From: Gammaproteobacteria bacterium
GTDB lineage: Bacteria > Pseudomonadota > Gammaproteobacteria > DRLM01
Direction: 5' to 3'
Length of the DNA stretch: 42,635 bases
Assembly (NCBI GenBank): GCA_919903055.1
Contig: CAKKSB010000050.1
Coordinates: 1,975-44,609 of the forward strand
Shown here: positions 1,546 to 30,094 of the stretch, piece by piece
How the letters are laid out: every line of letters starts with the position of its first letter
Position numbering within the stretch: the stretch's first letter is position 1
Translations under genes and position numbers: made by a program
The notes under the pieces: model-generated
Databases searched by the model: none
The model's input: only the letters and a program-made list of their open reading frames with translations
Told to the model about the DNA's origin: nothing

Positions 1546-1574
1546 ATGTCATCCATTTGTCATATAACTGCAAC
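1546..1574 (+). promoter_or_regulatory. Pho-box-like triple direct repeat
   Basis: ATGTCAT-CCAT-TTGTCAT-ATAA-CTGCAAC with 11-bp period, compared with the PhoB consensus CTGTCAT-A(A/T)A(T/A)-CTGTCA(C/T). No good -10 at the 10-bp position. Confidence 0.6.
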
Positions 1575-1687
1575 CTGTATACATTACCGGCCGCTGTTTT
1601 CTTAATCCCGCAATGCGGTAATGGTAAGTTACTTTCTTGCCAGCATAAGTTCAGCGCGCGCTCGCACTACAAACAAAATGTATATCT

Positions 1688-1721
1688 TTGTCATCAAGCT
1701 GAAATAGCCAAGAGCTAGATT
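1688..1721 (+). promoter_or_regulatory. PhoB-type promoter for the wecG-xrtD operon
   Basis: TTGTCAT-CAAG-CTGAAAT, exactly 10 nt, then TAGATT (1716-1721). Confidence 0.6.
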
Positions 1722-1800
1722 ACTCCCACATCCGAACACAAGAGCGAGATTGCTTGTTGAAGAAGCGATGTCGTCGTGAGTTTAATGCGGGGGGTTGACA

Positions 1801-2568
1801 ATGATGAAACGTAATGTGGGACTGTTGTTGGAAGTGGCGATTGATAGAAAGCCGCTGGATCAATTGCTGGAGGATGCTACCGCAGCAGTGACCCGGCGCG
1901 GCGGCAAGGTGGTGTTTGCTTGCGCTAATCCTCATTCGCTAGTGACGGCACAGCAGGATACCGAATTTTTACTTGCACTCAATCGTGCCAGCCATGTGGT
2001 GGCGGACGGTATCGGCGTCTCGCTGATGGCAAAAATGGCGGGTATAAATGTAGGCCCACGCATCACCGGCAGTGATTTCTTTTGGGGACTTATGAAGACT
2101 CTCGAAGATCGCGGTGGCGGCCGGGCGTTCTTCTTCGGTTCTTCGCGCAAGGTGTTGGCGTTGATCAGTGAGCGCTGCGCGCGCGATTTTCCCCGCGTGA
2201 CTTTGTGCGGCGTGTTGTCGCCCCCTTATCGAATCTGGTCGCCGGAAGAAAATGCCGCGATGCTGACGCAGATCAACGCCGCGCGCCCGGATGTATTGTG
2301 GGTGGGTTTGACCGCGCCCAAGCAGGAAAAATGGGTGGAGGCTAACAGCGGTAAACTGGATGTGTCGGTGATCGCTTCGGTCGGCGCGGTGTTCGATTTT
2401 TATGCCGGCACTTATCCGCGGGCACCGGAATGGATATGTCGTTTTGGGATGGAGTGGTTTTATCGCCTGTTCAAGGAACCGCAACGGATGTGGCGGCGAA
2501 ATTTTGTTTCATCGCCGTTGTTCGTGTTGATGGTGTTACGTCGCCATCTTCTGCGGCTACCGTTTTAA
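1801..2568 (+). CDS. WecB/TagA/CpsF (WecG-like) glycosyltransferase
   Basis: Motifs ANPHS, VADGIGV, RITGSD, DVLWVGLTAPKQEKW, VGAVFDF and GMEWFYRLFKEPQRMWRR. Confidence 0.92.
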   Translation: MMKRNVGLLLEVAIDRKPLDQLLEDATAAVTRRGGKVVFACANPHSLVTAQQDTEFLLALNRASHVVADGIGVSLMAKMAGINVGPRITGSDFFWGLMKTLEDRGGGRAFFFGSSRKVLALISERCARDFPRVTLCGVLSPPYRIWSPEENAAMLTQINAARPDVLWVGLTAPKQEKWVEANSGKLDVSVIASVGAVFDFYAGTYPRAPEWICRFGMEWFYRLFKEPQRMWRRNFVSSPLFVLMVLRRHLLRLPF

Positions 2569-2590
2569 GCCAAGATTGTTTACGAACCCC

Positions 2591-4165
2591 ATGTCAGCGA
2601 TTTTGATCCCCACTCTTTCACGCTTGTCACGCTCGGCGATTTTATTGTGGAGCGGCATCGCGGTTTTCGTCGTCCTGATGTATTGGGACGGCCTTGCCTA
2701 TCTGGTCGAGCAATGGCTATCGCAGGAAGAATACAGCCACGGTTTTCTAATTCCGGTAATCGCTGTCTATTTGTTGTGGCAGAACAAGGATGCCTTGCAG
2801 AAGCTGGAATGCCGTGGTTCCTGGTGGGGCGTCGCGGTGGTAACCGCCGGACTCGGCCTGTTTCTGATCGGTGAACTCAGCACGCTTTATATACTTATTC
2901 AATATTCCTTGCTGATCGTGTTGGCGGGATTGGTGATTACCTTCGCCGGTTTGGCGGGGCTGCGCGCCACCTGGGTACCGTTGATCGTGATGTTGCTGAT
3001 GATTCCTCTCCCAAATTTTCTTTATCAGGGTCTGTCCAGCCAGCTGCAGTTGATTTCCTCGGAGTTGGGCGTGGCGGTCATACGTTTTTGCGGCGTCAGT
3101 GTATTCCTCGAGGGCAATGTCATCGATCTCGGCGCCATGAAACTGCAAGTGGCGGAGGCGTGCAACGGACTGCGTTATCTGTTTCCGCTGTTCACGGTCA
3201 GTTTCATCTTGGCTTATATGTTCCGCGCTCCGATCTGGATGCGTCTACTGGTGTTCGTGTCCGCCTTGCCCATCACCGTGTTAATGAATAGCTTCCGCAT
3301 CGGCGCCATCGGTGTGCTGGTGGAGCGCTGGGGACCGGCCATGGCGGAAGGTTTTCTCCACGACTTCGAAGGCTGGGTCGTGTTCATGTTGAGCATGCTG
3401 GTATTGTTGGCGGAGATGTGGTTGCTGGCGCGTCTCGCCGGTGATCGTCGCCCTTTGAACGATGTGATAGGGCTGACTTGGCCCGCGCCGAGTCCCAGGG
3501 ATGCCGCGGTGACTTATCGCAACGCGCCTTTGCCTTTTATGGTGGTGGCGGGTTTGCTGGTGTCAGTGATGGTGGTGGCGGTGAGTTTGCCGACACGGGC
3601 GGAGATTATCCCCAGTCGGCAATCCTTCAGCGAGTTTCCCACTCAGCTCGCGGGTTGGCAGGGACATACCGAGCGCCTGGAGCAGGTTTTCATCGACGTG
3701 CTGAAGTTCGATGATTATCTTTTGGCCGACTTTGCCAAAGGCGACGAGGCGGTGAACCTGTATGCGGCCTATTATGCCTCGCAGCGCAAAGGCGAATCGG
3801 CCCATTCACCGCGTTCCTGCATCCCCGGTGGCGGCTGGGAGATTCGCGATCACAGTACTAGACCGATCGCCGGCGCGCAGGTGGCTGGCGCGGCGCTTGA
3901 AGTGAATCGGGTGCTGATCCAAAAGGGCGAGACCCGCCAATTGGTATATTACTGGTTCCAGCAGCGCGGCCGGGTCATCACCAACGAATATCTCGTGAAG
4001 TGGTATTTGTTTTGGGATGCGCTCACCCGCAATCGCAGCGACGGCACGCTGATACGTCTGACCACCATGCTCGAGCCTGGTGAAGAATTGGGCGTGGGCG
4101 ATCGCCGCTTGACCGACTTCGCCCGCACCCTGGTGCCGGAATTACATCCCTTCGTGCCTGACTAG
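2591..4165 (+). CDS. xrtD: Exosortase D (VPLPA-CTERM-specific) with C-terminal EpsI domain
   Basis: Multi-TM protein with EYSHGFLIP, catalytic VAEACNGLRY, NSFRI and FLHDFEGW. EpsI motifs HSPRSCIPGGGW and YYWFQQRGR. VPLPA-type substrates lie downstream. Confidence 0.9.
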   Translation: MSAILIPTLSRLSRSAILLWSGIAVFVVLMYWDGLAYLVEQWLSQEEYSHGFLIPVIAVYLLWQNKDALQKLECRGSWWGVAVVTAGLGLFLIGELSTLYILIQYSLLIVLAGLVITFAGLAGLRATWVPLIVMLLMIPLPNFLYQGLSSQLQLISSELGVAVIRFCGVSVFLEGNVIDLGAMKLQVAEACNGLRYLFPLFTVSFILAYMFRAPIWMRLLVFVSALPITVLMNSFRIGAIGVLVERWGPAMAEGFLHDFEGWVVFMLSMLVLLAEMWLLARLAGDRRPLNDVIGLTWPAPSPRDAAVTYRNAPLPFMVVAGLLVSVMVVAVSLPTRAEIIPSRQSFSEFPTQLAGWQGHTERLEQVFIDVLKFDDYLLADFAKGDEAVNLYAAYYASQRKGESAHSPRSCIPGGGWEIRDHSTRPIAGAQVAGAALEVNRVLIQKGETRQLVYYWFQQRGRVITNEYLVKWYLFWDALTRNRSDGTLIRLTTMLEPGEELGVGDRRLTDFARTLVPELHPFVPD

Positions 4166-4175
4166 GGCCTGGGCC

Positions 4176-5765
4176 GTGATTCTGTTTTTCAGTTTTCTCA
4201 TCGCCATGCTGGTGACCATGATTTTGATTCCGCCGTTGATGCGGGTCGCGGCGCGGCTGCACATCGTCGATTTGCCCAACGACCGCAAGGTGCACACCGC
4301 GGCCATACCGCGGGTCGGCGGGGTGGCCATGGTGGTGGGCGCGGTGTTGCCATTGTTATTGTGGTTGTTGCCCCTGCCGGAGGTGATGGGCCTGTTGCTG
4401 GGCATGGGCGTGATTCTGGCCTTCGGGGTATGGGACGATCGCGCCGATCTCGATTACCGTCTTAAATTCGCCGGCCAGTGTCTCGCCGCGGTCATCGTAT
4501 GGTGGGCGGGGGCGCGGGTGGAGGCCTTGCCGTGGATCGGCGCGTTGACGCCGCTTTGGTCGTTGGGTTTCACGGTGCTGGCCTTGCTGGCGATCACCAA
4601 TGCGGTGAATCTCGCCGACGGTCTCGACGGCCTGGCCGGTGGCAGCACCTTGCTGAGTCTCACCGCCATCGCCGTGCTCGGTTATATGGCGGGACAGGTA
4701 GCGGTGGTACTGATCGCGCTGGCGGTGATGGGCAGCATTTTGGGATTCTTGCGTTTCAACACGCACCCGGCGCAAGTGTTCATGGGTGACGCCGGCAGTC
4801 AGTTTCTGGGTTTCGCCACCGGTGTACTGGCCATCTTTCTCACGCAAGGAGAGAATAGCCTGTACAGTCTCAGCTTGCCTATCCTGCTGCTGGGCCTGCC
4901 TATCCTGGATACGGCGCTGGTGATGATACAACGCCTCCGTGAAGGGCGCTCGCCTTTTTCACCTGATAAAAATCATATCCATCATCGCCTGTTGGCCGCG
5001 GGATTCGATCATTATCAGGCGGTGTTCGTCATTTACATCGTGCAGGCGCTCTTAGTCATCGCCGCTTATTATCTGCGTAATGCTTCCGACACGCTGATCC
5101 TGTTGTGTTATGCCGTTTGTTGTACCGTGATAATAGCGGCCGTTACATGGGCGGGCGCCCGTCCGCGGCGGGCGCGGGCGATGCCGGCGCTTTTGAAGGC
5201 CTGGGGGTTTCCTGGCGAACGGGTGGTGCGCTGGGGCGCGCTGACCGCCGCATTTTCCATCCCCCTTTATTTGGCAGCGGGTAATTTGCGTGCCGACGCG
5301 CCCAGCGCCGATCTGGTCTGGCTGGCGGGTGGCTTGATGAGTCTGCTGGCCCTGTGGTGGTGGTGGTGGTGCGGCCAGCCCATCAATTGGTTGGAGCGAG
5401 GCGGGATTTATCTGGCCGCCGCCCTGACGCTCTATTTGGCGCAGCGGGCGGGAGCGGCCGGTCTCTGGATGATTCTTAGCGACATCTATTTCGCACTGCT
5501 GGCGGTGACGGTGGTGATCGCCTTCCGTTGCGCGCGCGATCAGCGTTTCGTCGCCACGCCCCTGGATTTTCTGGTGGTGTTTCTCGCGGTGGTCTTGCCC
5601 CAGGTGCCGGGTCTCGAAATCGGGTATGCCCAAGATCTTACCCGCCTGATGGTCTTGTTCTATGCCCTCGAGTTGGTCCTCACTCAATTACAGGCGCGCT
5701 ATGATCTGGTGCGCGCCGCGGCTTGCGTGCTGTTGTGTTTGCCGCTACTACGCCTGTTTATGTAA
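4176..5765 (+). CDS. WecA/TagO/MraY-family polyprenyl-phosphate HexNAc-1-P transferase with an extra C-terminal membrane domain
   Basis: Motifs DLPNDRKVH, PRVGG, GVWDDR, NAVNLADGLDGLAGG, FMGDAGS and DKNHIHHRL, followed by a ~200-aa hydrophobic extension. Confidence 0.88.
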   Translation: MILFFSFLIAMLVTMILIPPLMRVAARLHIVDLPNDRKVHTAAIPRVGGVAMVVGAVLPLLLWLLPLPEVMGLLLGMGVILAFGVWDDRADLDYRLKFAGQCLAAVIVWWAGARVEALPWIGALTPLWSLGFTVLALLAITNAVNLADGLDGLAGGSTLLSLTAIAVLGYMAGQVAVVLIALAVMGSILGFLRFNTHPAQVFMGDAGSQFLGFATGVLAIFLTQGENSLYSLSLPILLLGLPILDTALVMIQRLREGRSPFSPDKNHIHHRLLAAGFDHYQAVFVIYIVQALLVIAAYYLRNASDTLILLCYAVCCTVIIAAVTWAGARPRRARAMPALLKAWGFPGERVVRWGALTAAFSIPLYLAAGNLRADAPSADLVWLAGGLMSLLALWWWWWCGQPINWLERGGIYLAAALTLYLAQRAGAAGLWMILSDIYFALLAVTVVIAFRCARDQRFVATPLDFLVVFLAVVLPQVPGLEIGYAQDLTRLMVLFYALELVLTQLQARYDLVRAAACVLLCLPLLRLFM

Positions 5766-5793
5766 TCGAATTGTAAACATGAACCGGTAAAGT
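5760..5793 (+). promoter_or_regulatory. PhoB-type internal promoter upstream of gmd
   Basis: ATGTAAT-CGAA-TTGTAAA, exactly 10 nt, then TAAAGT (5788-5793). Confidence 0.55.
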
Positions 5794-5827
5794 GAGTCAC
5801 CTTGATTCAAGCCGGTGTCTTCTTCTA

Positions 5828-6913
5828 ATGAATAAAAAAGCTTTAATCACCGGGGTGACCGGCCAGGACGGCGCCTATCTCGCCGAATTTCTGCTGCAAC
5901 AGGGTTATGAGGTACACGGCGTCAAGCGCCGCAGTTCGCTATTCAATACCGACCGTATCGACCATCTGTATCAAGACCCGCATGTGAGCGATCGCCGTTT
6001 CATCCTCCATTACGGCGACATGACCGACAGCAGCAGCCTGATCCGAATCATGCAACGGGTGCAACCGGACGAAGTATATAACCTGGCGGCGCAGAGTCAC
6101 GTGGCGGTGTCCTTCGAAGAACCTGAATACACCGCCAATGCCGACGCCTTAGGGACGCTGCGTCTACTGGAAGCCATCCGTATCCTCGGTCTGGAGAAAA
6201 AGACTCGTTTCTATCAAGCGTCATCCTCGGAATTGTACGGGCTCGTGCAGGAAACGCCGCAGCGGGAGACCACGCCTTTTTACCCGCGTTCGCCCTACGC
6301 AGTGGCCAAACTCTACGCCTATTGGATTACGGTGAATTATCGCGAGGCCTACGCCATCTATGCCTGTAACGGCATTTTGTTCAATCACGAATCGCCATTG
6401 CGCGGAGAGACTTTCGTCACCCGCAAGATCACCCGCGGTCTGGCGCGGGTGAAACTGGGACTGCAGGAATGCGTATATCTCGGCAATCTCAACGCCCGGC
6501 GCGATTGGGGCCATGCCCGCGACTATGTGGTCATGCAATGGTTGATGCTGCAACAAGAGCGGCCCGAGGATTATGTGATCGCCAGCGGTGAACAGCATAG
6601 CGTACGCGATTTCGTCGATGCCACCGCCGCCGCTCTCGACATGAAGATTTATTGGGAAAGCCAAGGTATCACCGAGTGCGGTTACGACGAACACGGTCTG
6701 TGCGTGGTCGCGGTGGATCCGCGTTATTTCCGTCCCACCGAGGTGGAGACTTTGTTGGGTGACGCCCGCAAGGCGCGTGAACAACTGGCTTGGCAACCGC
6801 AAGTGTCTTTTCAAAAATTAGTGGAGGAGATGGCTCATGCCGACCTCGAATTGGCGGAGCGCGACGCGCTGTGCCGCCGGGAAGGTTACCGTGTTTTTGA
6901 TTACCGGGAATGA
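5828..6913 (+). CDS. gmd: GDP-mannose 4,6-dehydratase
   Basis: Motifs [52 protein letters not shown] and YFRPTEV. Confidence 0.97.
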
Positions 6914-7861
6914 ATGAACATGGAACGTGACGCCCGTATTTATGTAACCGGCCACAATGGCTTGGTAGGTTCCGCCTTGGTGAGGGAATTGCAAAGACGC
7001 GGTTATGGCGATCTCATCCTTGCCGATCGTGCCCAGCTGGATCTGCGCGAGCAGACCGCGGTGCGGAAATTCTTTCGCGAAACTCGGCCAAATTATGTGT
7101 TTGTCGCGGCGGGCAAGGTGGGGGGCATTCTGGCGAATGACAGTTACCCGGCGGATTTCATTTACGACAATCTGATGATCGCCGCCAATCTAATTCATAG
7201 CGCCTACGAAAGGAATGTAAGAAAACTGCTTTATCTGGGCAGTTCCTGCGTCTACCCCAAGTACGCGCCTCAACCCATGTGTGAAGAGGATTTGCTGAGC
7301 GGGCCGTTGGAACCGACTAACCAGTGGTATGCGGTGGCCAAGATCGCCGGCATCAAGCTCTGTCAGGCTTATCGCCGCCAGCACGGCTGTAGTTATATCG
7401 CCGCCATGCCCACCAATCTCTACGGCCCCTACGATAATTTCAATCTCAACACCTCGCATGTATTGCCGGCCCTGCTGCGGAAATTTCACGAGGCCAAGCT
7501 TGCCGACGCCAGACAAGTGACGGTATGGGGCACCGGCAAACCGCGCCGCGAGTTCTGCCATGTCGATGATTGCGTCGCCGCCTGTCTGCACCTGATGGAT
7601 GTTTATGATAGTGAAGAGATCGTCAACATTGGTGCGGAGAGCGACATCAGCATTCGTGAATTGGCGGAGCTGGTTCAAGACATCGTCGGTTTCCAAGGTG
7701 AGATCGTCTTCGATACCGGCCGTCCCGACGGTTCGCCGGTTAAACGGATGGACACCAGCGTCATCAACGCTCTGGGATGGCATACCGCCATTGAACTGGA
7801 ACAGGGCATACGCGCGACCTACGACTGGTACGTGCGCCACAAAGCGGATCACAGAGGATAA
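6914..7861 (+). CDS. fcl: GDP-L-fucose synthase
   Basis: Motifs GHNGLVGSA, KVGGILAN, LGSSCVYP, YAVAKIAG, PTNLYGP, SHVLPAL and WGTGKPRREF; abuts gmd. Confidence 0.96.
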   Translation: MNMERDARIYVTGHNGLVGSALVRELQRRGYGDLILADRAQLDLREQTAVRKFFRETRPNYVFVAAGKVGGILANDSYPADFIYDNLMIAANLIHSAYERNVRKLLYLGSSCVYPKYAPQPMCEEDLLSGPLEPTNQWYAVAKIAGIKLCQAYRRQHGCSYIAAMPTNLYGPYDNFNLNTSHVLPALLRKFHEAKLADARQVTVWGTGKPRREFCHVDDCVAACLHLMDVYDSEEIVNIGAESDISIRELAELVQDIVGFQGEIVFDTGRPDGSPVKRMDTSVINALGWHTAIELEQGIRATYDWYVRHKADHRG

Positions 7862-7866: not shown

Positions 7867-10251
7867 ATGAACAAATATGGCTTGATTTTGCTTCTGGCCG
7901 CGGCACTGGCGGCGTGCAGCAGCGCCGAAGACCGCAAGACCGCTTATTTGCAAAAGGCGGCGGGCCTGCAAGCTCAGGGTAATTATGAGAAAGCGCGCCT
8001 GGAAGTGAAGAACGCTTTGCAGATTGAACCCAAGGATGTTCAGGCTTGGTATCTCATGGGTGAAATGGAAGAGAAGCTGCAAAACTGGCGTGCCGCCGCT
8101 GGTGGTTACCAGCGCGTGTTGGAGATGGATGCCGCGCATACCGGCGCCAAGCTTAAACTGGGACGTTTGTATCTGCTGGGCGGCGCGCCGGAGCGCACCG
8201 CAACGCTGGTGCAGGAGGTCTTGAAGGCCGAACCGGAAAATGTCGAGGCGCTGATATTGCGGGCCGGGGTCGCGGCGAAACGCGGCGATTTCGAAGCCGC
8301 CGGACGCGATGCCCATGCCGCGTTGGCGAAAGACCCCAAGAATATCGATGCCGCGATTTTTACGGCTACCCTTGAAATGCGGGACGGACACGCCGACCAG
8401 GCGGTCCGTCTGTTGAAGCAGGCGATCGAACAACATCCCAAACATGCCGGCCTGCGGGCGGTATTGGCCGATGTCTACGGCCAAACCGGACGCATCGACG
8501 AAGGCGCCGCGCAACTCAGGGAAATCACCGGCCTCTATCCCGAGAAAGTCGCTCCTTACGTGAATCTCGCCCGCTATTACCTACAGCATCAAAATGCCAG
8601 CGCCGCGGAGCAGGTGCTGCGTGACGCCCTCAAGCGCCAGCCCAAGCAGCAGGAACTTCGGATGGCGTTGGCGGCTTTTTTGGTGGATCAACGTCGGCAG
8701 GATGAGGCGGTGCAAACCGTCGAAGGTTTTATCAAGGAAACCCCCGAGGATTACTTTCTGCGTTTCCGTCTGGCCGAGCTTCATCTGGCCATGGGCAAAA
8801 AGCAACAGGCGGAGTCGGTATACCAGGCGGTGATCGCCGCCGCGGGTATTAAACCCGATGGCCTCAAGGCGCGCAGCCAACTGGCGCGCCTGGCGATCGC
8901 GGAAGGGAAAACCGATCGCGGCGCCGAATTGCTGGCCCAGGTGTTGAAAGAAAATCCCAAAGATAACGATGCGCTGTTTCTGCGCGCGGGCCTAGCGCTG
9001 CAGAAACAGGATGCCGCCGCGGCCATCGCCGATTTGCGCGCCGTGCTGCACGATCAGCCGGCTTCCGTGCCGGCATTGAAGAATCTCGCCAGGGCTCACC
9101 TGCTCAAGGGCGAGTTGGATCTGGCGCTCGAGGCTTTGCAAAAAGCGATGGACGCCGCCCCGCGGGATGCCGATGTGCGAATAGCCTTGGCGGATCTGTT
9201 GTTACGGCAGGGTCAGAAGAGTAAGGGTCGAGAACAAGTGGAGCTGGTATTAAAGGACTCTCCGCGACACGTGGGTGCGTTGGAGATGCTATTCAATTTG
9301 CAGATTGCGGAGGCGGAATACACCCAAGCGATGGAGTCCGCCCAGCGCATTCAAGCCGAGAAACCGGGTCTCGGAGACTATTATGCGGGTAGGGTCTTTC
9401 AGATTCAGAAGAAACATGACCAGGCGATTTCCAACTTTGAAGCGGCGTTGAAACAGGTTCCGGGTGCGATGGAGCCGCTCACCGCGTTAGTGCAAAGCCG
9501 CCTTGCGTTAAACCAGGTGGCGCTCGCCGAGCAGCGGCTCCGCCAGGAGTTGACGCGCAGCGGCGGCAAGGATGACGACAATGTCGTGGTTCACAATTTG
9601 CTCGGCGAAGTGTTGCTGCTGCAAAAGAAAACGGATGACGCGATCGCCTCGCTGCGCGTGGCGGAACGTCTGAGTCCGCGCTTCGCCACGCCCTATCGCA
9701 ACCTCGCCTTCGCTTACATGGCGAAACAGGATCAGGCGGCGGCGGTGGAGGCTTTGCGCCGAGGCATCACCGCCACCGATCATGACCCCGCGCTGGTGAT
9801 CGCACTCGCGACCTACGAAGAAAACCATCAACGAAGCGAGCAAGCCATCGCCCTCTATCAGCAGGCCCTCAAGGCGCGGCCGCGCGAGGAGTCCTTTATT
9901 AACAACCTGGCGATGATGCTTGCCATCTACCGCACGGATAAAGCGGACATCGATCGCGCCGTACAATTGGGCGAAAGTCTCAAGAGTCGCGGTAATCCCG
10001 CTTATCTCGATACCTTGGGCTGGGCCTATTACCGCCGCGGTGATTTCACGGCGGCCAAGGAGATGCTGGAGACGGCGATGCGTGCGGCCCCGGATTCTCA
10101 GCTGCTCAGCTATCACTTGGGCATGGTCTATTACCGGGAGGGTGATCACACGGCCGCCCGCCGTTATCTGGAGCGGGCGGTGGCGACGGAGACGCCCTAT
10201 ACCGGCGCCAACGAGGCCAAGGCCACCTTGGCCAAGCTCCAAACTTCGTGA
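7867..10251 (+). CDS. PrsT-like TPR-repeat lipoprotein of a PEP-CTERM/exosortase system
   Basis: Lipobox LAAC, TPRs throughout, C-terminal NNLA...YLDTLGWAYY...YHLGM typical of PrsT-like proteins; same operon as xrtD. Confidence 0.8.
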   Translation: MNKYGLILLLAAALAACSSAEDRKTAYLQKAAGLQAQGNYEKARLEVKNALQIEPKDVQAWYLMGEMEEKLQNWRAAAGGYQRVLEMDAAHTGAKLKLGRLYLLGGAPERTATLVQEVLKAEPENVEALILRAGVAAKRGDFEAAGRDAHAALAKDPKNIDAAIFTATLEMRDGHADQAVRLLKQAIEQHPKHAGLRAVLADVYGQTGRIDEGAAQLREITGLYPEKVAPYVNLARYYLQHQNASAAEQVLRDALKRQPKQQELRMALAAFLVDQRRQDEAVQTVEGFIKETPEDYFLRFRLAELHLAMGKKQQAESVYQAVIAAAGIKPDGLKARSQLARLAIAEGKTDRGAELLAQVLKENPKDNDALFLRAGLALQKQDAAAAIADLRAVLHDQPASVPALKNLARAHLLKGELDLALEALQKAMDAAPRDADVRIALADLLLRQGQKSKGREQVELVLKDSPRHVGALEMLFNLQIAEAEYTQAMESAQRIQAEKPGLGDYYAGRVFQIQKKHDQAISNFEAALKQVPGAMEPLTALVQSRLALNQVALAEQRLRQELTRSGGKDDDNVVVHNLLGEVLLLQKKTDDAIASLRVAERLSPRFATPYRNLAFAYMAKQDQAAAVEALRRGITATDHDPALVIALATYEENHQRSEQAIALYQQALKARPREESFINNLAMMLAIYRTDKADIDRAVQLGESLKSRGNPAYLDTLGWAYYRRGDFTAAKEMLETAMRAAPDSQLLSYHLGMVYYREGDHTAARRYLERAVATETPYTGANEAKATLAKLQTS

Positions 10252-10261
10252 GGCGCATCCG

Positions 10262-12595: not shown

Positions 12596-12634
12596 TGTGC
12601 AATTCACAAAACTGTAAAGTCCGCTCTTCAAAAT
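12590..12634 (+). promoter_or_regulatory. PhoB-type promoter upstream of VPLPA-CTERM gene 1
   Basis: ATTTAAT-GTGC-AATTCAC-AAAA-CTGTAAA, 10 nt, CAAAAT; homologous to 13784-13828. Confidence 0.55.
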
Positions 12635-13582: not shown

Positions 13583-13783
13583 GCCGAACGTACAGTCGAC
13601 TTTGAAAAAAACCGGGAATCGTCACCTCGGTCGTGAACATCTTAAAGTCATACGTTTGCTAGTCACGCCGAAATCTAAAGTCGATGTAAAAGTCATCACA
13701 CACGCTCTTTACTTACCGATAGCGGTAAACAGGTGGAATATACGTCCTCCGTCCAGTGTTTCTAACATAAAAAATACAAGAAA

Positions 13784-20900: not shown

Positions 20901-23900
20901 GGCCGGTGAGATCGAACTCAGCGTGCTCGCGCCGACCAACGATACCGATCTTGTGGTCTTCGATCCCACCCAATCCATTTGGCTGGGACCGCAGGGCCAT
21001 TTGCTGGCCGGTGCTTATTTCCAGGCCGTGCCCGATGGTTCGGGACGGAACCTGCGCAGTGGCAAGATGCTGAAAGGGGGCGAAGTCGCCCTCACCGCGA
21101 AACGCGGTTACGTTTTAACTGATACCGGTTCGCTGATCGATGTCTCGGGAGTGTCGGAAACCTTGGATGTCGACATTCAGGGACGCTTCGAGTCCACGCT
21201 GATGAACGGCGCGGCGGGCGCCGTCACTCTCACGGCGGCCGAGGGCATGGTGCTGAACGGCGATCTGCGCGGCGCGGCAGGCAACGGCGCAGGGGCGGCG
21301 GGCGGTAGCCTCGTACTCGCTTTGCAACCCGAGACCCGTACGGGCGCGGCATCGCGCGATATCGTGCTTACCGCGGAGGTGGTGGCCACGCCGGCGGTCG
21401 GCGCGGCGGTGGCGAACGATCTGAATGGCGTGGCGCGGCTTGATCCCGGGAAGGTACGGAGCGGCGGTTTCGACGCCCTCGACGTAATCGCCCGGTCTGC
21501 TAATACCACGGATGCGACGGCAGCCCGCGTTATCGTGGCGGGCGACAGCGGTCTCGACCTCAAACGCAGACTGGTGCTGGATGCGCCCATTTTGGAATCC
21601 AACGGTGGCCGCGCCGAGCTGGGAGCGGCTTACGTTAGAATGGGCATGAGCGAGACTATCGCGCCCGGCAGTGCCACATCCGGCAGCGGCAGTCTGCGTG
21701 TGCACGGCGAGCAAGTGGATATCGTCGGCAAGATGGCTCTGCGCGGTTTCGGTCCCGCCGCGTCCGAGCAAGATGTCGCCGCGACGACGCCGGTACGGAT
21801 TGAAAGCGGAGGCGACATTCGCCTCATCGGCGATTCGTCGCTCATCGGCCGCCTCGACAGTCGGGCGGACATTACCTTGCAGGCCGATCAGGTCTATACC
21901 ACTACCGCGACGGACTACACACTGTCGGTCGCCGGGCCGACCGGCCGGATAATAATAGAGCCGGGCGGGGAAACGGCGGCGTCATTCTCCGCCGGTTCCA
22001 AACTTACGCTCGCGGCCACCGACATCGAACAGCGCGGTACGCTGCGCGCGCCTTTCGGTCAGATCGAACTCGCCGCGACCAACAGCGTGACCCTGGGCGA
22101 AGGCAGTGTCACCTCGGCTTCCGGTGGCGGATTAGTCGTACCTTTCGGTTATACCGAATTCGGCGAAGATTGGCTTTACAAGGTCGGTACCAGCGGCAAG
22201 ATTTACCAGGCGCCGCCGGAGAAGGGCGTGGCAGTGAGCGCGCCGAACCTCACGCTGGCGCCGGGCTCCGTCGTCGACGTGAGCGGCGGTGGCGATCTGT
22301 TGGCGCGCGAATTCTTGCCCGGACCGGGCGGCTCCAAGGACATATTCGCTTCGGTCAACGCCAACGGTGCCTTCGCCGTGGTGCCCGGAGTGAATGCCTT
22401 CGGCAACTACGACCCCCTGCTGTCGGGTAAGGAGATCACGACCGGCGCGACGATCCATTTCGCCGCGGGTGGCCCGCTGCCCGCCGGTGATTATGCAGTG
22501 TTGCCGGCAGGGTATGCTTTGTTGCCCGGCGCCTATCTGGTCACGCCGTTGCAGGCACCGGAAAATCCGCTGCCCGGCGCGACCATGCCGCAATTTGACG
22601 GATCGGTGGTCGTCGCCGCTAAACACGGGATGGCGGGCACGGATATCCGCGACAATCTATGGTCGGCCTTCCGTGTCGAAAACGGCACACAAGTGAGAAA
22701 CCGCGCCGAGTACCTGGAGAGCAGGGCCGATACTTTTTTCGCAGCAGGCGCCGCCAGCGGCGATTCGTTGAACCGCGATGCCGGCCGCTTGGTGTTGGAT
22801 GCCGGCAATACGTTGGTGTTGGGCGGTACGCTGACACGTAATAATGGCGCAGGCCGCGGTTCCGCGGCCGATATCCTCGCCGATCGCTTGGCGGTGGTGA
22901 CCGCGGTCACCGGCGCGAGCGATCGCGTCGAGTTGCTCGCGGCGGATTTGAACAAGTTGGGTGCGGAGAGTCTGCTGCTGGGCGCGCGGCGCGAAGCGGC
23001 GGGCAAGGATAGCAAGCTCGACGTACAGGCGCAGGAAGTGCGGATTACACAGAACGTGCAAGTGACCGCCCCCGAGCTGATATTGGCAGCACGCAACACC
23101 GTGAGCATCGCCGACGGTGCCGCGCTGACGGCGACGGGTAGCAAAGTGGCCGCGCCCGCTTCCGTACTGATCGACGGCGACAGCGCCTACGCCCGGATTT
23201 CCACCGGCGAGCAGGTGCGGGTGCGGCGTGAAGGCGATAGCGGTGCCGCCGGCACCTTCGAACTGGCGGCGGGGGCGCGGCTGGACGCGGCGCGTTCCAT
23301 CACTCTCGACGCCAGTCGCGATACGCGGGTGAATGGCGATGTTCACACCGATAACGGTTCGCTGAGTCTGGCGGCCGCCCGCATCAGTCTCGGCGACACG
23401 GCGGGAGTGAGCGGCGGGCTGCTACTCTCCAATGAAACGCTCGCCCGGCTCAACGCCAGCGATCTCCGTTTCACCAGCCGCGGCACCGTCGATATCTACG
23501 GCGCGCTCGATCTCGACCTCGATCATCTCGAAATCAATGCGGCGGGACTCGCCGGTTATCACAATGTCGGCCAGACTGTGTCGATCGACGCCGACAGCGT
23601 AGTCCTCGCCAACCGTGCCGGCGCGAGCTTTACCGGCGCGCCGGACGGCGGCGGTGCGTTGAATATGTCCGCCCGCGAAGTGACGTTGGGCGAAGGCAAG
23701 TTTGCGCTGCGAGGTTTCACTACCACTAATATCACCGCGACTGAACAAATCATCGCCAGTCCCGAAAGCGACGTTGCCGTTTCCCTGCAAGCGGCGGGCG
23801 ACCTCAATCTGACCGCGTCGCGCCTCACCGCGACGCGGGGCGCCGAAGTGAGTATAGGCACGCAGGTCGCCGACGGAACCGCCGTCGGCAAGCTCACTTT

Positions 23901-26900
23901 AAATGCTTTGGCCGCACCGGTCAGCCTGCCCGCAGTGACTGAACTCGGGGCGCGGCTCGATCTCACCGCCACGCAAATCGAAGACCGCGGCCACATCACG
24001 CTCCCGTCCGGTACGGTGATTTTGCACGCCACCGCCGAGGGTGGTGTCTCGCTGGCCTCGGGAGCGACCATCGACGTCGCTGGCCGTGACCTCTCCTTCG
24101 CCGATCTCGCCGTCGGCTCGCCCGGTGGCGCCGTAGAGTTGATCGCCGATCAGGGCGGCATCGACGTCGACGCCGCGGCACGCATCAATGTCTCCGGCGC
24201 CGCCGCAGGCGGCGATGCCGGTAAATTGAGTCTGCTCGCACCCCAGGGCGCGGTGAACGTGGATTCGTTTGCGCAGCTCGTCGGTGCGGCGAAAGTGGGT
24301 GCCGAGCAGGGACGGTTTGCGATCGACACGCAAATGCTCACCCAAGGATTCTCGTCACTCAACAGCCTGCTTAATGACGGCGGTTTCACCGAAGCGCGTC
24401 AACTGCATTTGCGCCGCGGCGACCTTGCCGTCGCCGCGGCCGACGTGGTGCGTGCGCACGATGTCAACCTGAGCGCGGACGCGGGCAAAATCGACGTGTA
24501 TGGCCGTATTGATGCTTCCGGCGTGAAGGCGGGGCGGGTAAGTCTTTACGCCGCCGATGATCTCACCGTGCACGGCTCAGCCCGCATCGACGCTCACGCC
24601 GCGGCGGCCGGTGAACAAGGCGGCGGGGTGAGGCTGGCGACGGCGAACGGCCGCATCGATATGCAGGCCCCCGATGCCACTATCGATGTTGCAGGTACCG
24701 ATGACGCAGGTGGCCGCGCAGACAACGGCCGCGTGCATATCCGCGCCGCCCGGGACGGCGCCGCCGGTGTCCGGATCGAGCCCATCGCCGCGACCGTCAC
24801 CGGAGCTGATCGAATCAATATCGAGGCTAATCGCGTTTACAGCACCAACGATATCAACGACGCACTCATCGCCGACATTGGCGCCGACACCGCCGCCTTC
24901 ATGGCTAACGCCGGTCAGATTAAAAATGCTCTCGGCGTAGCGGCGGACAGCCGCTTTCATGTCATACCGGGGATCGAAATACAAAGCCCCGCCGCGCTGG
25001 CGGTGAACACGAATTGGGATTTATCGCAGTGGCGTTACGACGGCGACCCCGGCGTGCTGACGTTGCGCGCCGTTGCTGATTTGAATTTCAACGGCAGTCT
25101 AAGCGACGGTGTGACGCTAGACTTTCCCGTGCGGGATTCCACCGATTTATTTCCGGAACGTGAATTGGTGATGACCGGTCCGAGCTGGTCTTATCACTTG
25201 GCGGGCGGCGCCGATATCGGCGCCGCCGACCCGCTCGCGGTAGTGCGGGATACCGGCGATGTCAATCTCGCTGTGGGCGTTAAGCTCCGCACCGGTACTG
25301 GCAGCATCGAATTAGCCGCGGGTCGCGATCTCCGTTTCGCCGATAGCACGGCGGCGATCTACACCACCGGCGAAAACCGCGGTACCGGTGGTGTATCCGC
25401 GGGAGATACCGGTTTTTCCGCCGATGTCATAAAAGAGTTGGTATTCAAGGCGGATTTCCTGGAGAACGGCGGCGATGTCCGTATCGTCGCCGGCAACGAC
25501 ATCCTTGGTGCCGATGGCCATCAATTCATCAATGAATGGTTGACGCGGGTTGGCGGTGATGTGGTGTTACCGGGGATCGGCAGCACATCACTGCCGGCAT
25601 CCTGGGCGATTAATGTCACCAATTTCGCGCAAAACATCGGCGCCTTGGGCGGCGGCGATGTGACGGTGACCGCAGACGGGAATCTTGACAAGCTTTCGGT
25701 GATGATACCAACTACTGCCCAACCGACAAGTGATGCCGCCCATCCCGCTATCGCCGGCGGCGGTGATCTACGCATCGACGCCGGCGGTGATATTAAAGGC
25801 GGCGTATTCTATCTCGGCCAAGGTCATGCCGATATCCGGGCTGGCGGCGCGCTGAGCCATGCCGAGGGTGCGACGGTGAACCCTATTCTCTCTATGAATG
25901 ACGGCCATTATGATGTTCGGGCCGGCAAGGATCTCACCATCGAGACGGTACTCAACCCCACCGTGCTGGCCCAGCGCAATATTCACGGCGATTACATGGA
26001 CACCACCGTTTCATTGGAGCTGGAATCGTATTTCTTCACGTATTCCAACAATAGCGCGGTGCGGCTGGAGTCTCTCGCCGGAGATATCACTTTGCGCGGT
26101 GACAAGGCCGCGCTGGAAAGCGTGTCCGACGTGCTCTACAACACTATTAATCCCTCTGCTAATTACCGTTTGGCGACCCAGGCGATAAATTGGTATCCCG
26201 GCACACTGAGCGCTCGCAGCCTACAGGGAGACATCGCTGTCATCGGCGACAGCGGTCTTACCCTGACATTGGTTCCCGCACCGCGAGGGGATTTGGAACT
26301 GCTGGCCGGCGGTTCCATTACGACGGGTGGAAAAGGCAGCGTCAATCTCGTGTTGTCGGATACCGATGCCCGTTCGCTGCCCGCTATCGCCACCCCCTCA
26401 CTAAGTTTAACGAACACTCTACTGCGGCAGGGTGCGCACGCCCCACTTCCCGTGCACGCCGATGATTCGCAAGCGGTACGCATCGTCGCCCGCGGCGGCA
26501 ACATACAGCCATTGGAAGGCAGCCAGGACACGCTGAGCTTCGTGCTTGGCAAATCGGCGCGGATCAATGCTGGTGGGGATGTGCGGGATATCACGCTCGA
26601 TATTCAGAATATCGGTGAGCGTGATATCTCAACGGTCGAAGCCGGGGGTGATATTCGTTTCTCGATTCAGCGCGATGCCGGCGGCAAGGTGAAGGCCACC
26701 GACGATAATCAATTCAAAATCGAAGGCCCCGGCCAGTTCTTCGCTATTGCCGGTGCAGACGTGGACCTCGGCGCCTCACAAGGTATTTCTTCCGTGGGTA
26801 ACCAGAATAATCCCGCGCTTGCCGATCGTGGTGCCGCCATCAACGTTATCGCGGGCGCCAAGCGTGAGCCGGATTACGCCGGCTTCATTCAGCGCTATTT

Positions 26901-27930
26901 CGCTGATTCAACCGCGTACCGGCAGCGGTTGGCGAACTACCTCGCGCAACGCGGCGCGGTTTCCAGCGGCGTCGACGCCTTTCGTGGTTTGTCTCTGGTC
27001 GAGCAGCGCCAACTGATACTCGAAGTGTTCTTCACCGAACTCCGCGAGTCGGGTGTCGCGGCGGCCAAGAAAGGTGACGGCGATTACAGTCGGGGATTTA
27101 CGGCGATCAAGACATTGTTTCCGGCCGACGACTACCAAGGGGATATCAAGTCTTTCTTGAGCCGCATCTACACGTTGGACGGCAATGACATCTCGCTCTT
27201 GGCGCCGGGCGGGCTGGTCAATGCCGGGGTCGCCAGTTCCGCGGTTATCAATAAAGAGCCGGGCAAGCTCGGTATCGTCGCGCAACGCGACGGCGACATT
27301 CATGGTTTCGTCGCCGACGATTTCCTGGTCAACCAATCGCGGGTCTTCGCCCTCGACGGTGGTGATATCGTGATCTGGTCTTCCACCGGCGACATCGACG
27401 CCGGCCGTGGCGCCAAGACAGCCTTGTCGATACCGACACCAACGAGCACCACCGATGCCAATGGTAATACGGTGGTGGAACTGCCGCCGGCCGTTGCGGG
27501 CAGCGGCATCCGCGGCGCGGTAAGCACGCCCGGCCGCGCGCCGGGCGATGTTTATCTCTTCGCGCCCGCCGGGGTGGTCAACGCCGGCGACGCGGGTATC
27601 GGCTCGGCCGGCAACGTCACCATCGGCGCGGTGCAGGTGATCGGCGCCGACAATATCGACGTGGGCGGCGTGTCGGTGGGTGTGCCCCTAGCGGACACCG
27701 GCAGTTTGACGGCGGGCGCGGAGGGCTAAAGAGATGCGGCGGGGACCGTTACCAAGGACGCCATGGAATCCGCCACCGCGGCGGCTCAGCAGAATACTTC
27801 CTCTACCCCGGTTGCCGATGAAGCCTTGGCATTCCTGCAAGTGGAAGTACTGGGTTTCGGTGAAGAGAAAAAACTTGGAGATAATGTGAACGAAGCAAAG
27901 AATGAAGAGAAAAAGGACGCGAATGAATAA
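17950..27930 (+). CDS. Filamentous haemagglutinin-family TpsA exoprotein with DUF3739-type C-terminus; in-frame TAA at 27727-27729 (ORF as called ends at 27729)
   Basis: Signal peptide, TPS domain (AILNWQSFNVG, NRI, ANGQIYLINKNGILFG), beta-helix-like G..IDVSG repeats, DFLVNQSRVF and WSSTGDIDAGRG. The same frame continues 66 codons past the TAA and contains FLQVEVLGFG. Confidence 0.88.
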
Positions 27931-27972
27931 ATATCAAAGCTCACGATGATCGACGTAAGGTCTAATCCCGTT

Positions 27973-28006
27973 TGCTCACGAATCGGTAACCGGGGCGAAT
28001 TAAAAG
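27973..28006 (+). promoter_or_regulatory. Weaker copy of the PhoB-type box
   Basis: TGCTCAC-GAAT-CGGTAAC, 10 nt, TAAAAG; shares CAC(G/A)AATCGGTAAC with 28314-28327. Confidence 0.4.
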
Positions 28007-28309
28007 ACCCGACAACCAAAACAACATTGGTGCAAGGCTAGGCCGCAAAAACAGTACGAATACGAGTCCCGTCCGGGGGTTTTTTAGTTGCTTACCGCAT
28101 GGGGGCTCGTAGTACGCCGTAAGTTCAGAAAACGGAGCGGTGTGGTTGATGTACCGCGTGTCGGGCAACATGTTCATCGCGCCTTTAAACTCACCACTCC
28201 GGCGTTAACGGTTACCCCTCCTTTTTGAGAGGGGAGTGATGAAAGCAGGTTGATCTTTCCTCACGGAGCAAATACCAGCAATTGCGAAGCACTACCCGAG
28301 GTTTTGGAC

Positions 28310-28343
28310 GATACACAAATCGGTAACATACCCCGTTTAAACT
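28310..28343 (+). promoter_or_regulatory. PhoB-type promoter upstream of the TpsB gene
   Basis: GATACAC-AAAT-CGGTAAC, exactly 10 nt, TAAACT (28338-28343). Confidence 0.5.
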
Positions 28344-28435
28344 CCCTTGCATTGGTGGCAGACTTCGGGGTTCAGAGTCTGGCCGTGTTCGCAAGTCGTC
28401 GCATTCAGCGGAAGGTTCCCGTGTACGGTATTTCT

Positions 28436-30094
28436 ATGGCGCGATGGGCCCTGACACCCAATCTCGTCTGGTGGTGTTGCACCTGCTTATTGTGGGGCGC
28501 GTACGCCCATGCTCAAGATAGCCGGGGTGATCTCACGAGCGCGAGTAAGCCACGCTTCGATTTGTGGGAGTTGCGCGTTTCGGGGAATAGTCTCCTGGGT
28601 ATCCAAGAGGTGGAAAGGACGCTGTACCGCTTTCTGGGCGCAGGCAAGTCGGTTGATGACGTGGAAGCGGCGCGTGAAGCGCTGACTCAGGCTTACAGCG
28701 AAGCCGGATACGGTACTGTGCTGGTGAACATTCCCGAGCAGGATGTGGCGAACGGCATCGTTTATTTGCAGGTGGTCGAAGGACGAGTCGAGCAAAGTAT
28801 CGTCAGCGGCGCCAAATACCATTCCCCGCAACGGATCCGCGAGCAGGTGCCCGCGCTGGCGGACAACGGCGTGCTGCATCTGCCCAGTTTGCAGACGCAA
28901 CTCGCCGCGCTTAACGCGGTGAGCGGCGATCGCGCGGTGACGCCGGTGCTGCGCCCCGGCCGCACGCCCGGCACGGTGGAAGTGGAATTGAAGGTGCAGG
29001 ATGCGTTGCCGTTGCACGGCAGTCTGGCGCTCAACGATCGTTATTCGCTCAATACCTCCCGTCTCCGGCTGGAAGCCCAACTCAGTTACGGGAATCTTTG
29101 GCAGCGTGAACACAGTGTGTCCTTGCAATATCAGACCGCACCGGAAGAACTCAGCGAAGTGCAAGTATGGGCGGGCACGTACGTGTGGCGTGATTTTACC
29201 AAACGCTCGATCCTAGCTTTGTACGGTGTGCATTCGGAAAGCGAAGTGGCCGCGGTGGGCAGTTTTCAAGTACTCGGCCAGGGCGATATCGTCGGCGCGC
29301 GGCTGATCACGCCCTTCGCCGCTCAAGCCGGGTTCAGTCACAGTTTGACTCTGGGAATGGACTACAAGGATTTCGCGGAGGATTTGGCTTTGACCGGGAA
29401 CAGCGTGCCGGTCACCACACCTATCAGTTATATTCCCTTTTCCGTTGCTTACGGCGGCGCGAAGGTCGGCGCCGCGATAGACACCCGCTTTGAGCTTGGT
29501 GCGCATTTCGGCGTACGCGGTGTGGGCGACGATGAAATCGACTGCGAATTCCAGCGGGGAGACGGCAGTATCGGCCGGCAACGCATCAATGAGTTTGCCT
29601 GTAAACGGGCCGGCGCCAAACCCAATTTTGTTTATCTCACCGCGAGCGTCGAACATACCCGCGAGTTGATGAAGAGCATAGCCATGCATGTGGCGTTGCG
29701 CGGCCAGTTGGCGGATTCACCCCTCATCAGCAACGAACAGTTCAGCGCCGGCGGGATGGACAGTGTGCGCGGCTATCTGGAATCGGAGCGGCAGGGCGAC
29801 GATGCGATTCAATTCAATTTCGAACTGCGGTCATCGCCGCGGACGATGTCCATTCTGAATAGCTTGGCGGAGTTACGCGCCCATGGATTCATCGATGCCG
29901 CCTGGTTGAATATCCGTGAGCCCTTGCCCGGTCAGGCGCGGGATTACAGTCTTGCCGGTGCCGGCCTTGGTCTGCGCGCCGGTACGTTCAAAGGCGTGGG
30001 CGCCGCGATGGATCTGGCGTGGGCCCTGGAGGATGGCAGCGACACGCAAAAGGGGGATCTGCGCTGGCATTTTTCGCTGGATTATAAATTTTGA
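28436..30094 (+). CDS. ShlB/FhaC/HecB-family TpsB outer-membrane transporter
   Basis: Signal peptide ending AHA, POTRA start (ELRVSGNSLL...Y..AGY), IPEQ, SVRGY motif, terminal Phe; follows the TpsA gene. Confidence 0.9.
   Translation: MARWALTPNLVWWCCTCLLWGAYAHAQDSRGDLTSASKPRFDLWELRVSGNSLLGIQEVERTLYRFLGAGKSVDDVEAAREALTQAYSEAGYGTVLVNIPEQDVANGIVYLQVVEGRVEQSIVSGAKYHSPQRIREQVPALADNGVLHLPSLQTQLAALNAVSGDRAVTPVLRPGRTPGTVEVELKVQDALPLHGSLALNDRYSLNTSRLRLEAQLSYGNLWQREHSVSLQYQTAPEELSEVQVWAGTYVWRDFTKRSILALYGVHSESEVAAVGSFQVLGQGDIVGARLITPFAAQAGFSHSLTLGMDYKDFAEDLALTGNSVPVTTPISYIPFSVAYGGAKVGAAIDTRFELGAHFGVRGVGDDEIDCEFQRGDGSIGRQRINEFACKRAGAKPNFVYLTASVEHTRELMKSIAMHVALRGQLADSPLISNEQFSAGGMDSVRGYLESERQGDDAIQFNFELRSSPRTMSILNSLAELRAHGFIDAAWLNIREPLPGQARDYSLAGAGLGLRAGTFKGVGAAMDLAWALEDGSDTQKGDLRWHFSLDYKF

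Follow-up and report, generated by a model that had tools for sequence, protein, structure and literature searches.

A 42,635-nt stretch of DNA from a gammaproteobacterium, probably an uncultured one (assembly GCA_919903055.1, contig CAKKSB010000050.1; G000:C50:1975-44609 in our numbering, hereafter the window) carries an exosortase locus that, at least in part, is probably a member of the organism's Pho regulon. The locus combines the exosortase XrtD and three VPLPA-CTERM cargo genes (V1, V2 and V3) with genes for GDP-fucose synthesis (gmd and fcl), a secreted PstS-like protein and a two-partner secretion (TPS) pair, the giant exoprotein TpsA and its transporter TpsB. Judged by promoter sequence, PhoB control is likely for the wecG-xrtD-wecA operon, plausible for gmd and for tpsA, whose elements are conserved in a congener, and possible for V1. 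An earlier sequence-only reading had proposed a single co-regulated set of six units under PhoB, and this phosphate regulon now appears partly supported: the evidence is strong at wecG-xrtD and moderate at gmd, tpsA and V1, but weak at tpsB, and the V2 site is not Pho-like. To our knowledge, exosortase systems are widespread in environmental bacteria, and little has been established about what induces them or what they do.

Pho-like promoter elements in the locus

PhoB-activated promoters are described as carrying 7-bp direct repeats of the TGTCAT type with an 11-bp period, which take the position of the -35 and leave 10 nt between the last repeat and the -10 (PMC4971064). The sequence-only reading had reported this layout (heptamer, 4 nt, heptamer, 10 nt, -10-like hexamer) in front of six units, at 1688 (wecG-xrtD), 5760 (gmd), 12601 (V1), 13795 (V2), 17846 (tpsA) and 28310 (tpsB), with extra boxes at 1546 and 27973, and all eight sequences are indeed found at these positions and with this spacing (Table 1). 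The geometry is exactly that of the genome's own pstS (CTGTCAT-ATGG-ATGTCAT, 10 nt, TAGACT), pstC (TTGTCAT-ATTT-CTGTCAT, 10 nt, TATGGT) and phoB (GTGTCAT-ATGC-CTGTAAT, 10 nt, TAACAA) promoters. PhoB itself is encoded on contig C142 (348 bits, cut-off 296). PhoR is present as fragments, one on C142 and the end of phoR on C131, which continues into pstS, pstC and pstA; no pstB scored above cut-off in the assembly, most likely because contig C131 ends within the pst operon.

The head of the wecG-xrtD-wecA operon shows the closest resemblance to these promoters. The proximal box at 1688 differs from the TGTCAT consensus at two positions and has the canonical geometry of pstS and pstC. Further upstream lies an array of four in-phase heptamers whose core, at 1546, is among the top three positions by a matrix from the genome's own boxes and among the top two by a matrix from relatives, with 0 of 2000 shuffles as good. 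With both strands of the assembly counted, there are only three perfect copies of TGTCAT-N5-TGTCAT, at pstS, at pstC and at window position 1547. The gmd, V1 and tpsA boxes match the consensus in part, the V2 and tpsB boxes do not, and at gmd the canonical spacing between box and -10 is kept.

Genome-wide matrix analysis

The own-genome half-site matrix was built from five boxes outside the window, those of pstS, pstC, phoB, a GDPD/5'-nucleotidase operon and a PhoX gene, and 4,786,082 positions were scored with it. It gives 23.4 at 1546 (3 positions as high), 15.3 at 1688 (17), 13.1 at gmd (49) and 8.5 at tpsA (479), then 1.5 at V1 (7,987), -2.0 at 27973 (26,876), -4.2 at V2 (54,535) and -7.6 at tpsB (146,172). 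When each upstream region was tested against 2000 dinucleotide shuffles, the best box was reached by none of them for wecG, by 10 for gmd and by 78 for tpsA. Composite sites, defined as a box scoring at least 8 with TAnnnT exactly 10 nt downstream, number 14 in the genome, and three of these (1688, 5760 and 17846) fall in the window, which is 1.8% of it (binomial p = 0.0018, with the threshold of 8 picked after the tpsA score of 8.5 had been seen). Raising the threshold to 13 leaves seven sites, two of them in the window (p = 0.006). Outside the window, the composites at the threshold of 8 belong to pstC, pstS, ppk, a porin, PhoX and a MIP channel, plus five more, four of which are masked as coding. 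For wecG, gmd and tpsA each, 0 of 2000 shuffles reached the composite.

The relatives' matrix, with 18 columns, was derived de novo from the pstS upstream regions of 23 relatives, one genome left out. The motif recovered from them reads TGTCAT-N5-TGTCAT-A, and its hexamer varies between T and G at letter two and between C and A at letter four. In five of the six upstream regions its top position is the very site singled out by the sequence-only reading, and the real value is reached by 0 (wecG), 23 (gmd), 52 (tpsA) and 64 (V1) of 2000 shuffles. Scores are 11.5 at V1, 9.5 at tpsA, 7.2 at tpsB and 4.1 at 27973, the last low by either matrix. Combining the six regions by Fisher's method yields p = 1.5e-5, or 1.3e-3 without wecG.

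Pho-like boxes also turned up elsewhere in the assembly. A strong one, TTGTCAC-CAAT-TTGTCAC (G000:C18:4390-4407, minus strand; 22.8 by the relatives' matrix), stands about 200 nt before priA. On another contig (G000:C64, 100-241 and 8401-8418), boxes flank a 507-aa protein without a family match, and another precedes a 2936-aa GH94 cyclic beta-1,2-glucan-synthase-like gene.

Conservation in a same-genus genome

The same-genus genome G002 carries the order xrtD-wecA-gmd-fcl-prsT-propeller, with neither wecG nor the insertion sequence remnant found at the corresponding place in the window. About 120 nt before its xrtD, on the operon strand, lies TTGTAAA-ACGC-CTGTCAT. At its wecA/gmd junction, ATGTAAT-CGTA-TTGCAAT followed by 10 nt and TACACT aligns with the window's 5760 element; the heptamers and the TA...T of the -10 are kept, and the spacer and 5' untranslated region have diverged. 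Additional composite sites precede the propeller gene and a 197-aa open reading frame (ORF), the latter of which in translation shows no family match and no VPLPA-CTERM tail.

The PstS-like-tpsA-tpsB cluster of G002 sits on another contig and encodes proteins 31-74% identical to those of the window. Its tpsA element (GCGACAT-GAAT-TTGTAAC, 10 nt, TAGGGT) is identical at 26 of 34 positions amid diverged flanks, its tpsB element at 32 of 34, and the 27973 element and terminator are kept as well in intergenic DNA that has otherwise diverged. Such conservation marks the gmd, tpsA, tpsB and 27973 elements as real and functional, whatever binds them.

XrtD loci and PstS-like genes in other genomes

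Of 401 genomes in the class, 36, this one among them, have an XrtD above cut-off, and the xrtD-wecA pair is kept in 27 of 33 XrtD loci. When the 300 nt before xrtD were scored on both strands in the 33 loci, a Pho-like box reached p <= 0.05 on the forward strand in seven and p <= 0.01 in three (G002, G262 and G316), against three and one on the reverse strand. The XrtD loci that have wecG upstream (G139, G086 and G340) hold no strong box within 1.5 kb. Pho-like control of xrtD would thus be recurrent, appearing in four families (f1, f49, f140 and f12), but a minority state.

Cargo genes were scored in five of the genomes whose xrtD is preceded by a Pho-like box (G002, G262, G316, G022 and G240), where 13 of 16 VPLPA-CTERM matches were tested and three, cut by contig ends, were dropped. 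Among those above the family cut-off, six of nine have a forward Pho-like box at p <= 0.05 and none of nine a reverse one; the matches below cut-off gave none of four. The tested genes include paralogues and orthologues and are not independent, and five of seven independent groups are positive.

Homologues of the PstS-like protein occur in 15 of 400 other genomes of the class, nine of which also have XrtD (Fisher p ~5e-7, with kin that are not independent). In 13 of 16 loci tpsA or tpsB adjoins the PstS-like gene, and a VPLPA-CTERM gene lies directly upstream of it in G002, G262, G022 and G240, just as V3 does here. Tandem TGTAAY boxes separate the PstS-like gene from tpsB in G179, G109 and G335. 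XrtD, its cargo, PstS-like and TPS genes therefore co-occur and are linked in other genomes.

Cargo genes and their upstream blocks

The V1 and V2 proteins are paralogues with 52% identity, and a block of about 50 nt that includes TGCAATTCAC lies upstream of both genes, in leaders that are otherwise unalignable. The core of this block was found at these two genes only in the assembly. A fourth VPLPA-CTERM cargo gene, on another contig (G000:C125:14163-15320, minus strand), is no paralogue of V1 or V2. Its upstream region of about 550 nt contains three in-phase heptamers, TTGTCAC-GATT-AATTCAC-GACA-ATTTCAT, and the repeated GTCACGCCTA, with a non-significant PhoB score (p = 0.175). Each of the three cargo transcription units (V1, V2 and C125:14163-14918) is preceded by the heptamer AATTCAC, which occurs only 38 times in unmasked (intergenic) DNA. 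The V1, V2, 27973, tpsB and tpsA sites may be the degenerate end of the Pho-box family or the sites of a related regulator.

Readings of the V1/V2 block as CRP, FNR, FliA or extracytoplasmic-function (ECF) sigma factor sites were considered by eye and rejected for wrong spacing. The long cargo leaders matched no Rfam RNA family; across the window Rfam recognized a single feature, a tRNA (32273-32345).

The PstS-like protein and the two-partner secretion genes

The 600-aa secreted protein matched no Pfam or NCBIfam family, PstS included, and 6 of its 24 relatives match PBP_like_2, weakly. Sequence searches of the Protein Data Bank (PDB) with this protein, with V3 and with the family profile returned nothing relevant. 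Its AlphaFold2 (AF2) model (predicted local distance difference test score 80.2, predicted template modelling score 0.83) was more informative: in a Foldseek search of the PDB the best matches were all PstS or phosphate-binding proteins (best E 2e-7, target template modelling scores 0.4-0.67), and a search of the ESM Atlas agrees. The modelled structure shows a PstS-type (type II periplasmic-binding) fold plus insertions, and the label that the sequence-only reading had given the protein holds at the level of the fold. The LapA protein of Pseudomonas aeruginosa, discussed below, is one that we take to be PstS-like.

The tpsA element is a weak Pho-like box with canonical geometry. Between tpsA and tpsB, a terminator-like hairpin with a T-run (28061-28085) separates the 27973 element from the tpsB promoter, and the former may therefore drive a short separate transcript. 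Past the tpsA stop codon (27727-27729), positions 27730-27930 show coding-like conservation with G002, which has no stop at the aligned position; it would seem that either a genuine 65-aa ORF lies here (27734-27930) or the two genomes differ in how tpsA is truncated or extended. The tpsB gene probably starts at GTG 28385 and encodes a long signal peptide (MFASRRIQRK...), since the stretch before ATG 28436 is kept in G002 with mostly synonymous changes.

Gene content of the locus

Profile matches bore out the gene content that had been read from the sequence: XrtD, the wecG-type and WecA/MraY-like enzymes, gmd, fcl, the VPLPA-CTERM genes, TpsA and TpsB. The XrtD/VPLPA-CTERM system consists of an exosortase above its cut-off, three cargo genes in the locus and one on C125. 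The pair of a TpsA with a TPS domain and a TpsB with POTRA and Omp85/ShlB domains constitutes a two-partner (type Vb) secretion system. The six upstream regions have no further copies in the assembly, except that the tpsB region matches contig C19 over 104 nt at 77%. Directly 3' of tpsB, a 608-aa protein (30218-32044) has an eCIS_core domain (PF13699) as well as a cysteine protease domain of the calpain type (PF00648).

Table 1. Genes and candidate regulatory elements of the exosortase locus, in window coordinates.
Feature	Position	Strand	Details
IS5-family transposase remnant	1113-1481	-	Match limited to first ~58 residues; adjoins distal Pho-box array
Distal array of four in-phase heptamers	1535-1574	+	ACGTCTT-GAGC-ATGTCAT-CCAT-TTGTCAT-ATAA-CTGCAAC; core Pho box 1546-1563
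Proximal Pho box and -10	1688-1721	+	TTGTCAT-CAAG-CTGAAAT, 10 nt, TAGATT; predicted PhoB-dependent promoter of wecG-xrtD-wecA
Operon wecG-xrtD-wecA	1801-5765	+	
wecG/TagA-type glycosyltransferase	1801-2568	+	NCBIfam TIGR00696, 137.9 bits
Exosortase XrtD	2576-4165	+	NCBIfam TIGR04152, 591.1 bits (cut-off 400)
WecA/MraY-like phosphotransferase	4176-5765	+	TIGR02380, 171 bits (below cut-off 326)
Pho-like box and -10 of gmd	5760-5793	+	ATGTAAT-CGAA-TTGTAAA, 10 nt, TAAAGT; overlaps wecA stop codon; predicted internal promoter
gmd	5828-6913	+	Profile match
fcl	6914-7861	+	Profile match
PrsT-like TPR protein	7867-10251	+	291 bits (just under cut-off 312)
Beta-propeller/DUF11/Big_9-cadherin surface protein	about 10250-12595	+	
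V1 upstream block	12573-12634	+	AATTCAC-AAAA-CTGTAAA, 10 nt, CAAAAT (12601-12634)
VPLPA-CTERM cargo V1	12830-13582	+	TIGR03370, 37.6 bits (cut-off 25.35)
V2 upstream block	13763-13828	+	AATTCAC-GAAG-CTGCAAG, 10 nt, CAGACT (13795-13828)
VPLPA-CTERM cargo V2	14118-14828	+	TIGR03370, 27.1 bits
VPLPA-CTERM cargo V3	about 14917-15801	+	TIGR03370, 26.3 bits
G+C-rich hairpin, 12 pairs	15812-15840	+	Terminator-like or attenuator-like; between V3 and PstS-like gene
Secreted PstS-like protein	15872-17674	+	600 aa
Intrinsic terminator	17750-17775	+	3' of PstS-like gene; kept in G002
tpsA promoter element	17846-17879	+	TTGACAT-GTGT-TCGTAAC, 10 nt, TAATGT
TpsA, two-partner secretion exoprotein	17950-27729	+	3259 aa; PF05860 TPS, 99.2 bits; PF12545 DUF3739, 126.1 bits
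27973 element	27973-28006	+	TGCTCAC-GAAT-CGGTAAC, 10 nt, TAAAAG; between small ORF and terminator-like hairpin
tpsB promoter element	28310-28343	+	GATACAC-AAAT-CGGTAAC, 10 nt, TAAACT
TpsB transporter	28385-30094	+	ShlB, POTRA_2 and Omp85 domains

A model of phosphate control and the evidence that weighs against it

How would phosphate control of the locus operate? Under phosphate starvation PhoR would phosphorylate PhoB, whose dimers would bind head-to-tail on the 7-bp direct repeats at 11-bp spacing. The repeats would stand in for the -35 element, ending 10 nt before the TAnnnT -10, and PhoB would recruit sigma-70 RNA polymerase. The strongest target would be the head of wecG-xrtD-wecA, where a putative high-affinity distal array is combined with the proximal box and -10, and the candidate internal promoter at 5760 would serve gmd, fcl and the genes for the PrsT-like and propeller proteins. 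The tpsA element and V1 would be weaker candidates. V2, tpsB and 27973 share the layout, and their half-sites (TTCAC/GGTAAC) would lie at the edge of the PhoB matrices or outside them. Phosphate-limited cells would accordingly build a surface layer of fucose-containing glycan, XrtD-sorted VPLPA-CTERM proteins, the secreted PstS-like protein and giant TpsA. The sites, with their ranks, geometry and conservation, and the linkage of the genes are observed; that PhoB binds, that low phosphate induces the genes and what the layer does are inferred from the sequence.

Several observations weigh against membership of the Pho regulon. The six sites, taken as a single common motif, are only marginally above chance: the best motif of fixed 7/4/7/10/6 architecture in the six upstream regions has a log-likelihood ratio of 121.1, compared with 115.2 +/- 2.9 in 200 dinucleotide-shuffled sets, eight of which do as well. 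Without V2 the values are 107.3 and 102.5 +/- 2.7 (13 of 200 as good), and without V1 and V2 they are 91.9 and 89.8 +/- 1.9 (29 of 200); part of the signal is there because V1 and V2 are paralogous. A leave-one-out matrix test gave p <= 0.012 for every site, and was set aside as circular because the sites had been picked for mutual resemblance. The own-genome matrix, the check with the organism's own promoters that the sequence-only reading had called for, upholds 1546, 1688, gmd and tpsA but does no better than shuffles at V1 (1324 of 2000 as good), V2 (1280) and tpsB (1814), and by the relatives' matrix tpsB is equalled by 217 shuffles and V2 by 996. V2, at -2.3 by the latter matrix, is not Pho-like by either. 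The relatives' matrix is itself permissive, many of its top genome matches lying in regions masked as coding.

The best box in the locus is also oddly placed. The 1546 array stands about 140 bp from the proximal promoter, out of register with any -10, and the box has no TAnnnT 10 nt downstream, the nearest -10-like sequences being TATACA at 14 nt and TACATT at 16 nt; with the IS5 remnant adjoining it, the position of the array may be recent. In G002 the locus holds two of 142 genome matches at two mismatches or fewer, against 0.9 expected, which is non-significant alone, and 26 of the 33 XrtD loci give p > 0.05 before xrtD. Finally, the assembly (2.40 Mb in 157 contigs) is 75% complete, and its gene calls are crude.

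Alternative explanations

Could a second factor serve part of the locus? Under split control the glycan and sorting operons (wecG-xrtD, perhaps gmd) would be the sole direct PhoB targets, and V1/V2, tpsA, tpsB and 27973 would be served by something that recognizes TTCAC/GGTAAC half-sites in the same 11-bp layout. It could be another OmpR-family regulator, two more of which the genome encodes (208 and 192 bits by the PhoB model), or PhoB in concert with an alternative sigma factor, in the manner of the sigma-VreI promoters of P. aeruginosa, where pdtA is reported to require both PhoB and sigma-VreI (PMC4971064). The failure of V2 and tpsB on the PhoB matrices speaks for such an arrangement, as do the AATTCAC heptamers of the three cargo units and the sequence WYCAC-RAAW-CKGTAAS, which V1/V2, 27973 and tpsB share and which is unlike TGTCAT at positions invariant in 23 of 23 pstS boxes of relatives. 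However, when a matrix was built from these sites (group B: V1, V2, 27973, tpsB and tpsA), two of its three best non-training matches were the Pho-like porin and MIP promoters, so the two motifs appear to form a continuum. TTTCAT and GTTCAC half-sites also occur in the pstS boxes of relatives, the cargo genes of other XrtD genomes score with the PhoB matrix, and the locus encodes no candidate second regulator. We consider split control credible but rather unlikely.

An absence of any phosphate control, the elements being ordinary promoters or matches that arose by chance in intergenic DNA rich in A+T, is a good deal less probable. It would account for an unsupervised motif that barely exceeds shuffles and for the failure of three of the six sites on the strict own-genome matrix, but not readily for a perfect repeat whose only other two copies in 2.4 Mb are those of pstS and pstC, for wecG scores that 0 of 2000 shuffles reach, for composite sites that elsewhere mark classic Pho genes, or for boxes and -10 spacing that are kept in G002 and recur in other families. 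Least probable of all, to the point of being hardly tenable, is that the classical PrsK/PrsR/sigma-54 circuit of PEP-CTERM systems runs the cargo genes from overlooked sites. The genome does encode PrsR (contig C61; 741 bits, cut-off 503), the locus has a PrsT-like TPR protein, and the cargo genes have long upstream regions of the kind described by Haft 2006 (PMC1569441). No -24 GG/-12 GC site with two mismatches or fewer was found in any of the six promoter regions, though, and the sole -24/-12 match near a cargo gene falls inside the V2 coding sequence. In the text of PMC1569441, motif 1 ends in TTTACA, a sigma-54 site (motif 2) follows about 63 nt later, and motif 2 lies about 70 nt upstream of the cargo genes; no such succession was found on the coding strand before V1 or V2, and no motif 2 preceded by motif 1 defines a PrsK/PrsR/sigma-54 regulon here. 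The earlier statement that this part lacks a sigma-54 site and prsKR stands for the six promoter regions, with prsR located on C61.

Sigma-54-like -24/-12 sites do occur at 37013 (+) and 34926 (-), in the flagellar/chemotaxis part of the window outside the locus.

A phosphate-starvation module?

Phosphate control of the locus leads to a broader proposal, which we offer tentatively and regard as doubtful: XrtD, VPLPA-CTERM cargo, the secreted PstS-like protein and TpsA/TpsB would be one conserved phosphate-starvation-induced module in several gammaproteobacterial families. Exosortase-anchored glycoproteins and the giant exoprotein would hold a putative phosphate-binding protein outside the cell, capturing phosphate or attaching to phosphate-bearing particles. 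If true, exosortases of the XrtD class would for the first time have a physiological cue and a role assigned to them. On a more practical level, a PhoB-type promoter at the head of the XrtD operon would suggest a simple cue, low phosphate, for inducing XrtD systems in cultured relatives, and this cue is backed by the Pho-like boxes that stand, in several families, before cargo genes and before a linked PstS-like/TPS cluster. Full-text literature searches, with subscription journals and supplementary files outside their scope, found no exosortase-PhoB link; a paper that they returned on PEP-CTERM proteins and the Pho regulon has another regulator for the former.

Comparison with known systems

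The sites at 1688, 5760 and 17846 match exactly the geometry of PhoB promoters of the Escherichia coli type (pstS, phoA and phoB), and the promoter layout in the locus looks like sigma-70 plus PhoB. The putative targets differ from those of E. coli: instead of phosphate acquisition genes they are genes for GDP-fucose synthesis, an exosortase operon and a TPS exoprotein. In addition, the best box lies far upstream and out of -10 register here, and several half-sites are degenerate.

The sole exosortase regulatory circuit that we know to have been described is the inferred PrsK/PrsR/sigma-54 circuit for XrtA (PMC1569441). Those PEP-CTERM systems share with the present locus an exosortase, glycosyltransferases of the exopolysaccharide (EPS) type, a PrsT-like TPR protein and single-unit cargo genes with long upstream regions (PMC1569441). 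In contrast, the locus described here has XrtD and VPLPA-CTERM cargo, no motif-1/motif-2 pair and a candidate regulator of the OmpR/PhoB type.

Phosphate is also reported to set the display of surface polysaccharides and adhesins in rhizobial EPS production and, via RapA, for LapA of Pseudomonas fluorescens (PMC3233446, PMC3131613, PMC3032545). As presented in those sources, these systems involve no exosortase, and in P. fluorescens low phosphate removes the adhesin instead of inducing it.

A close parallel is the PUMA3 locus of P. aeruginosa (vreAIR-hxc-lapA-pdtA-phdA-pdtB), described as starvation-induced via PhoB and sigma-VreI, in which a giant TpsA/TpsB pair likewise stands beside a secreted phosphate-starvation protein. 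The promoter of its TPS gene pdtA has a pho box to which PhoB binds; LapA, a low-phosphate protein, is encoded in the locus as well, and sigma-VreI is required there (PMC4971064, PMC7035377). In P. aeruginosa an ECF sigma factor reads a separate -35/-10 downstream of the pho box, whereas here the box abuts a sigma-70-like -10; and the exosortase, absent from the Pseudomonas locus, is present here. Phosphate control of the locus would thus extend the theme set by pdtA, that of giant TPS exoproteins within the phosphate-starvation response.

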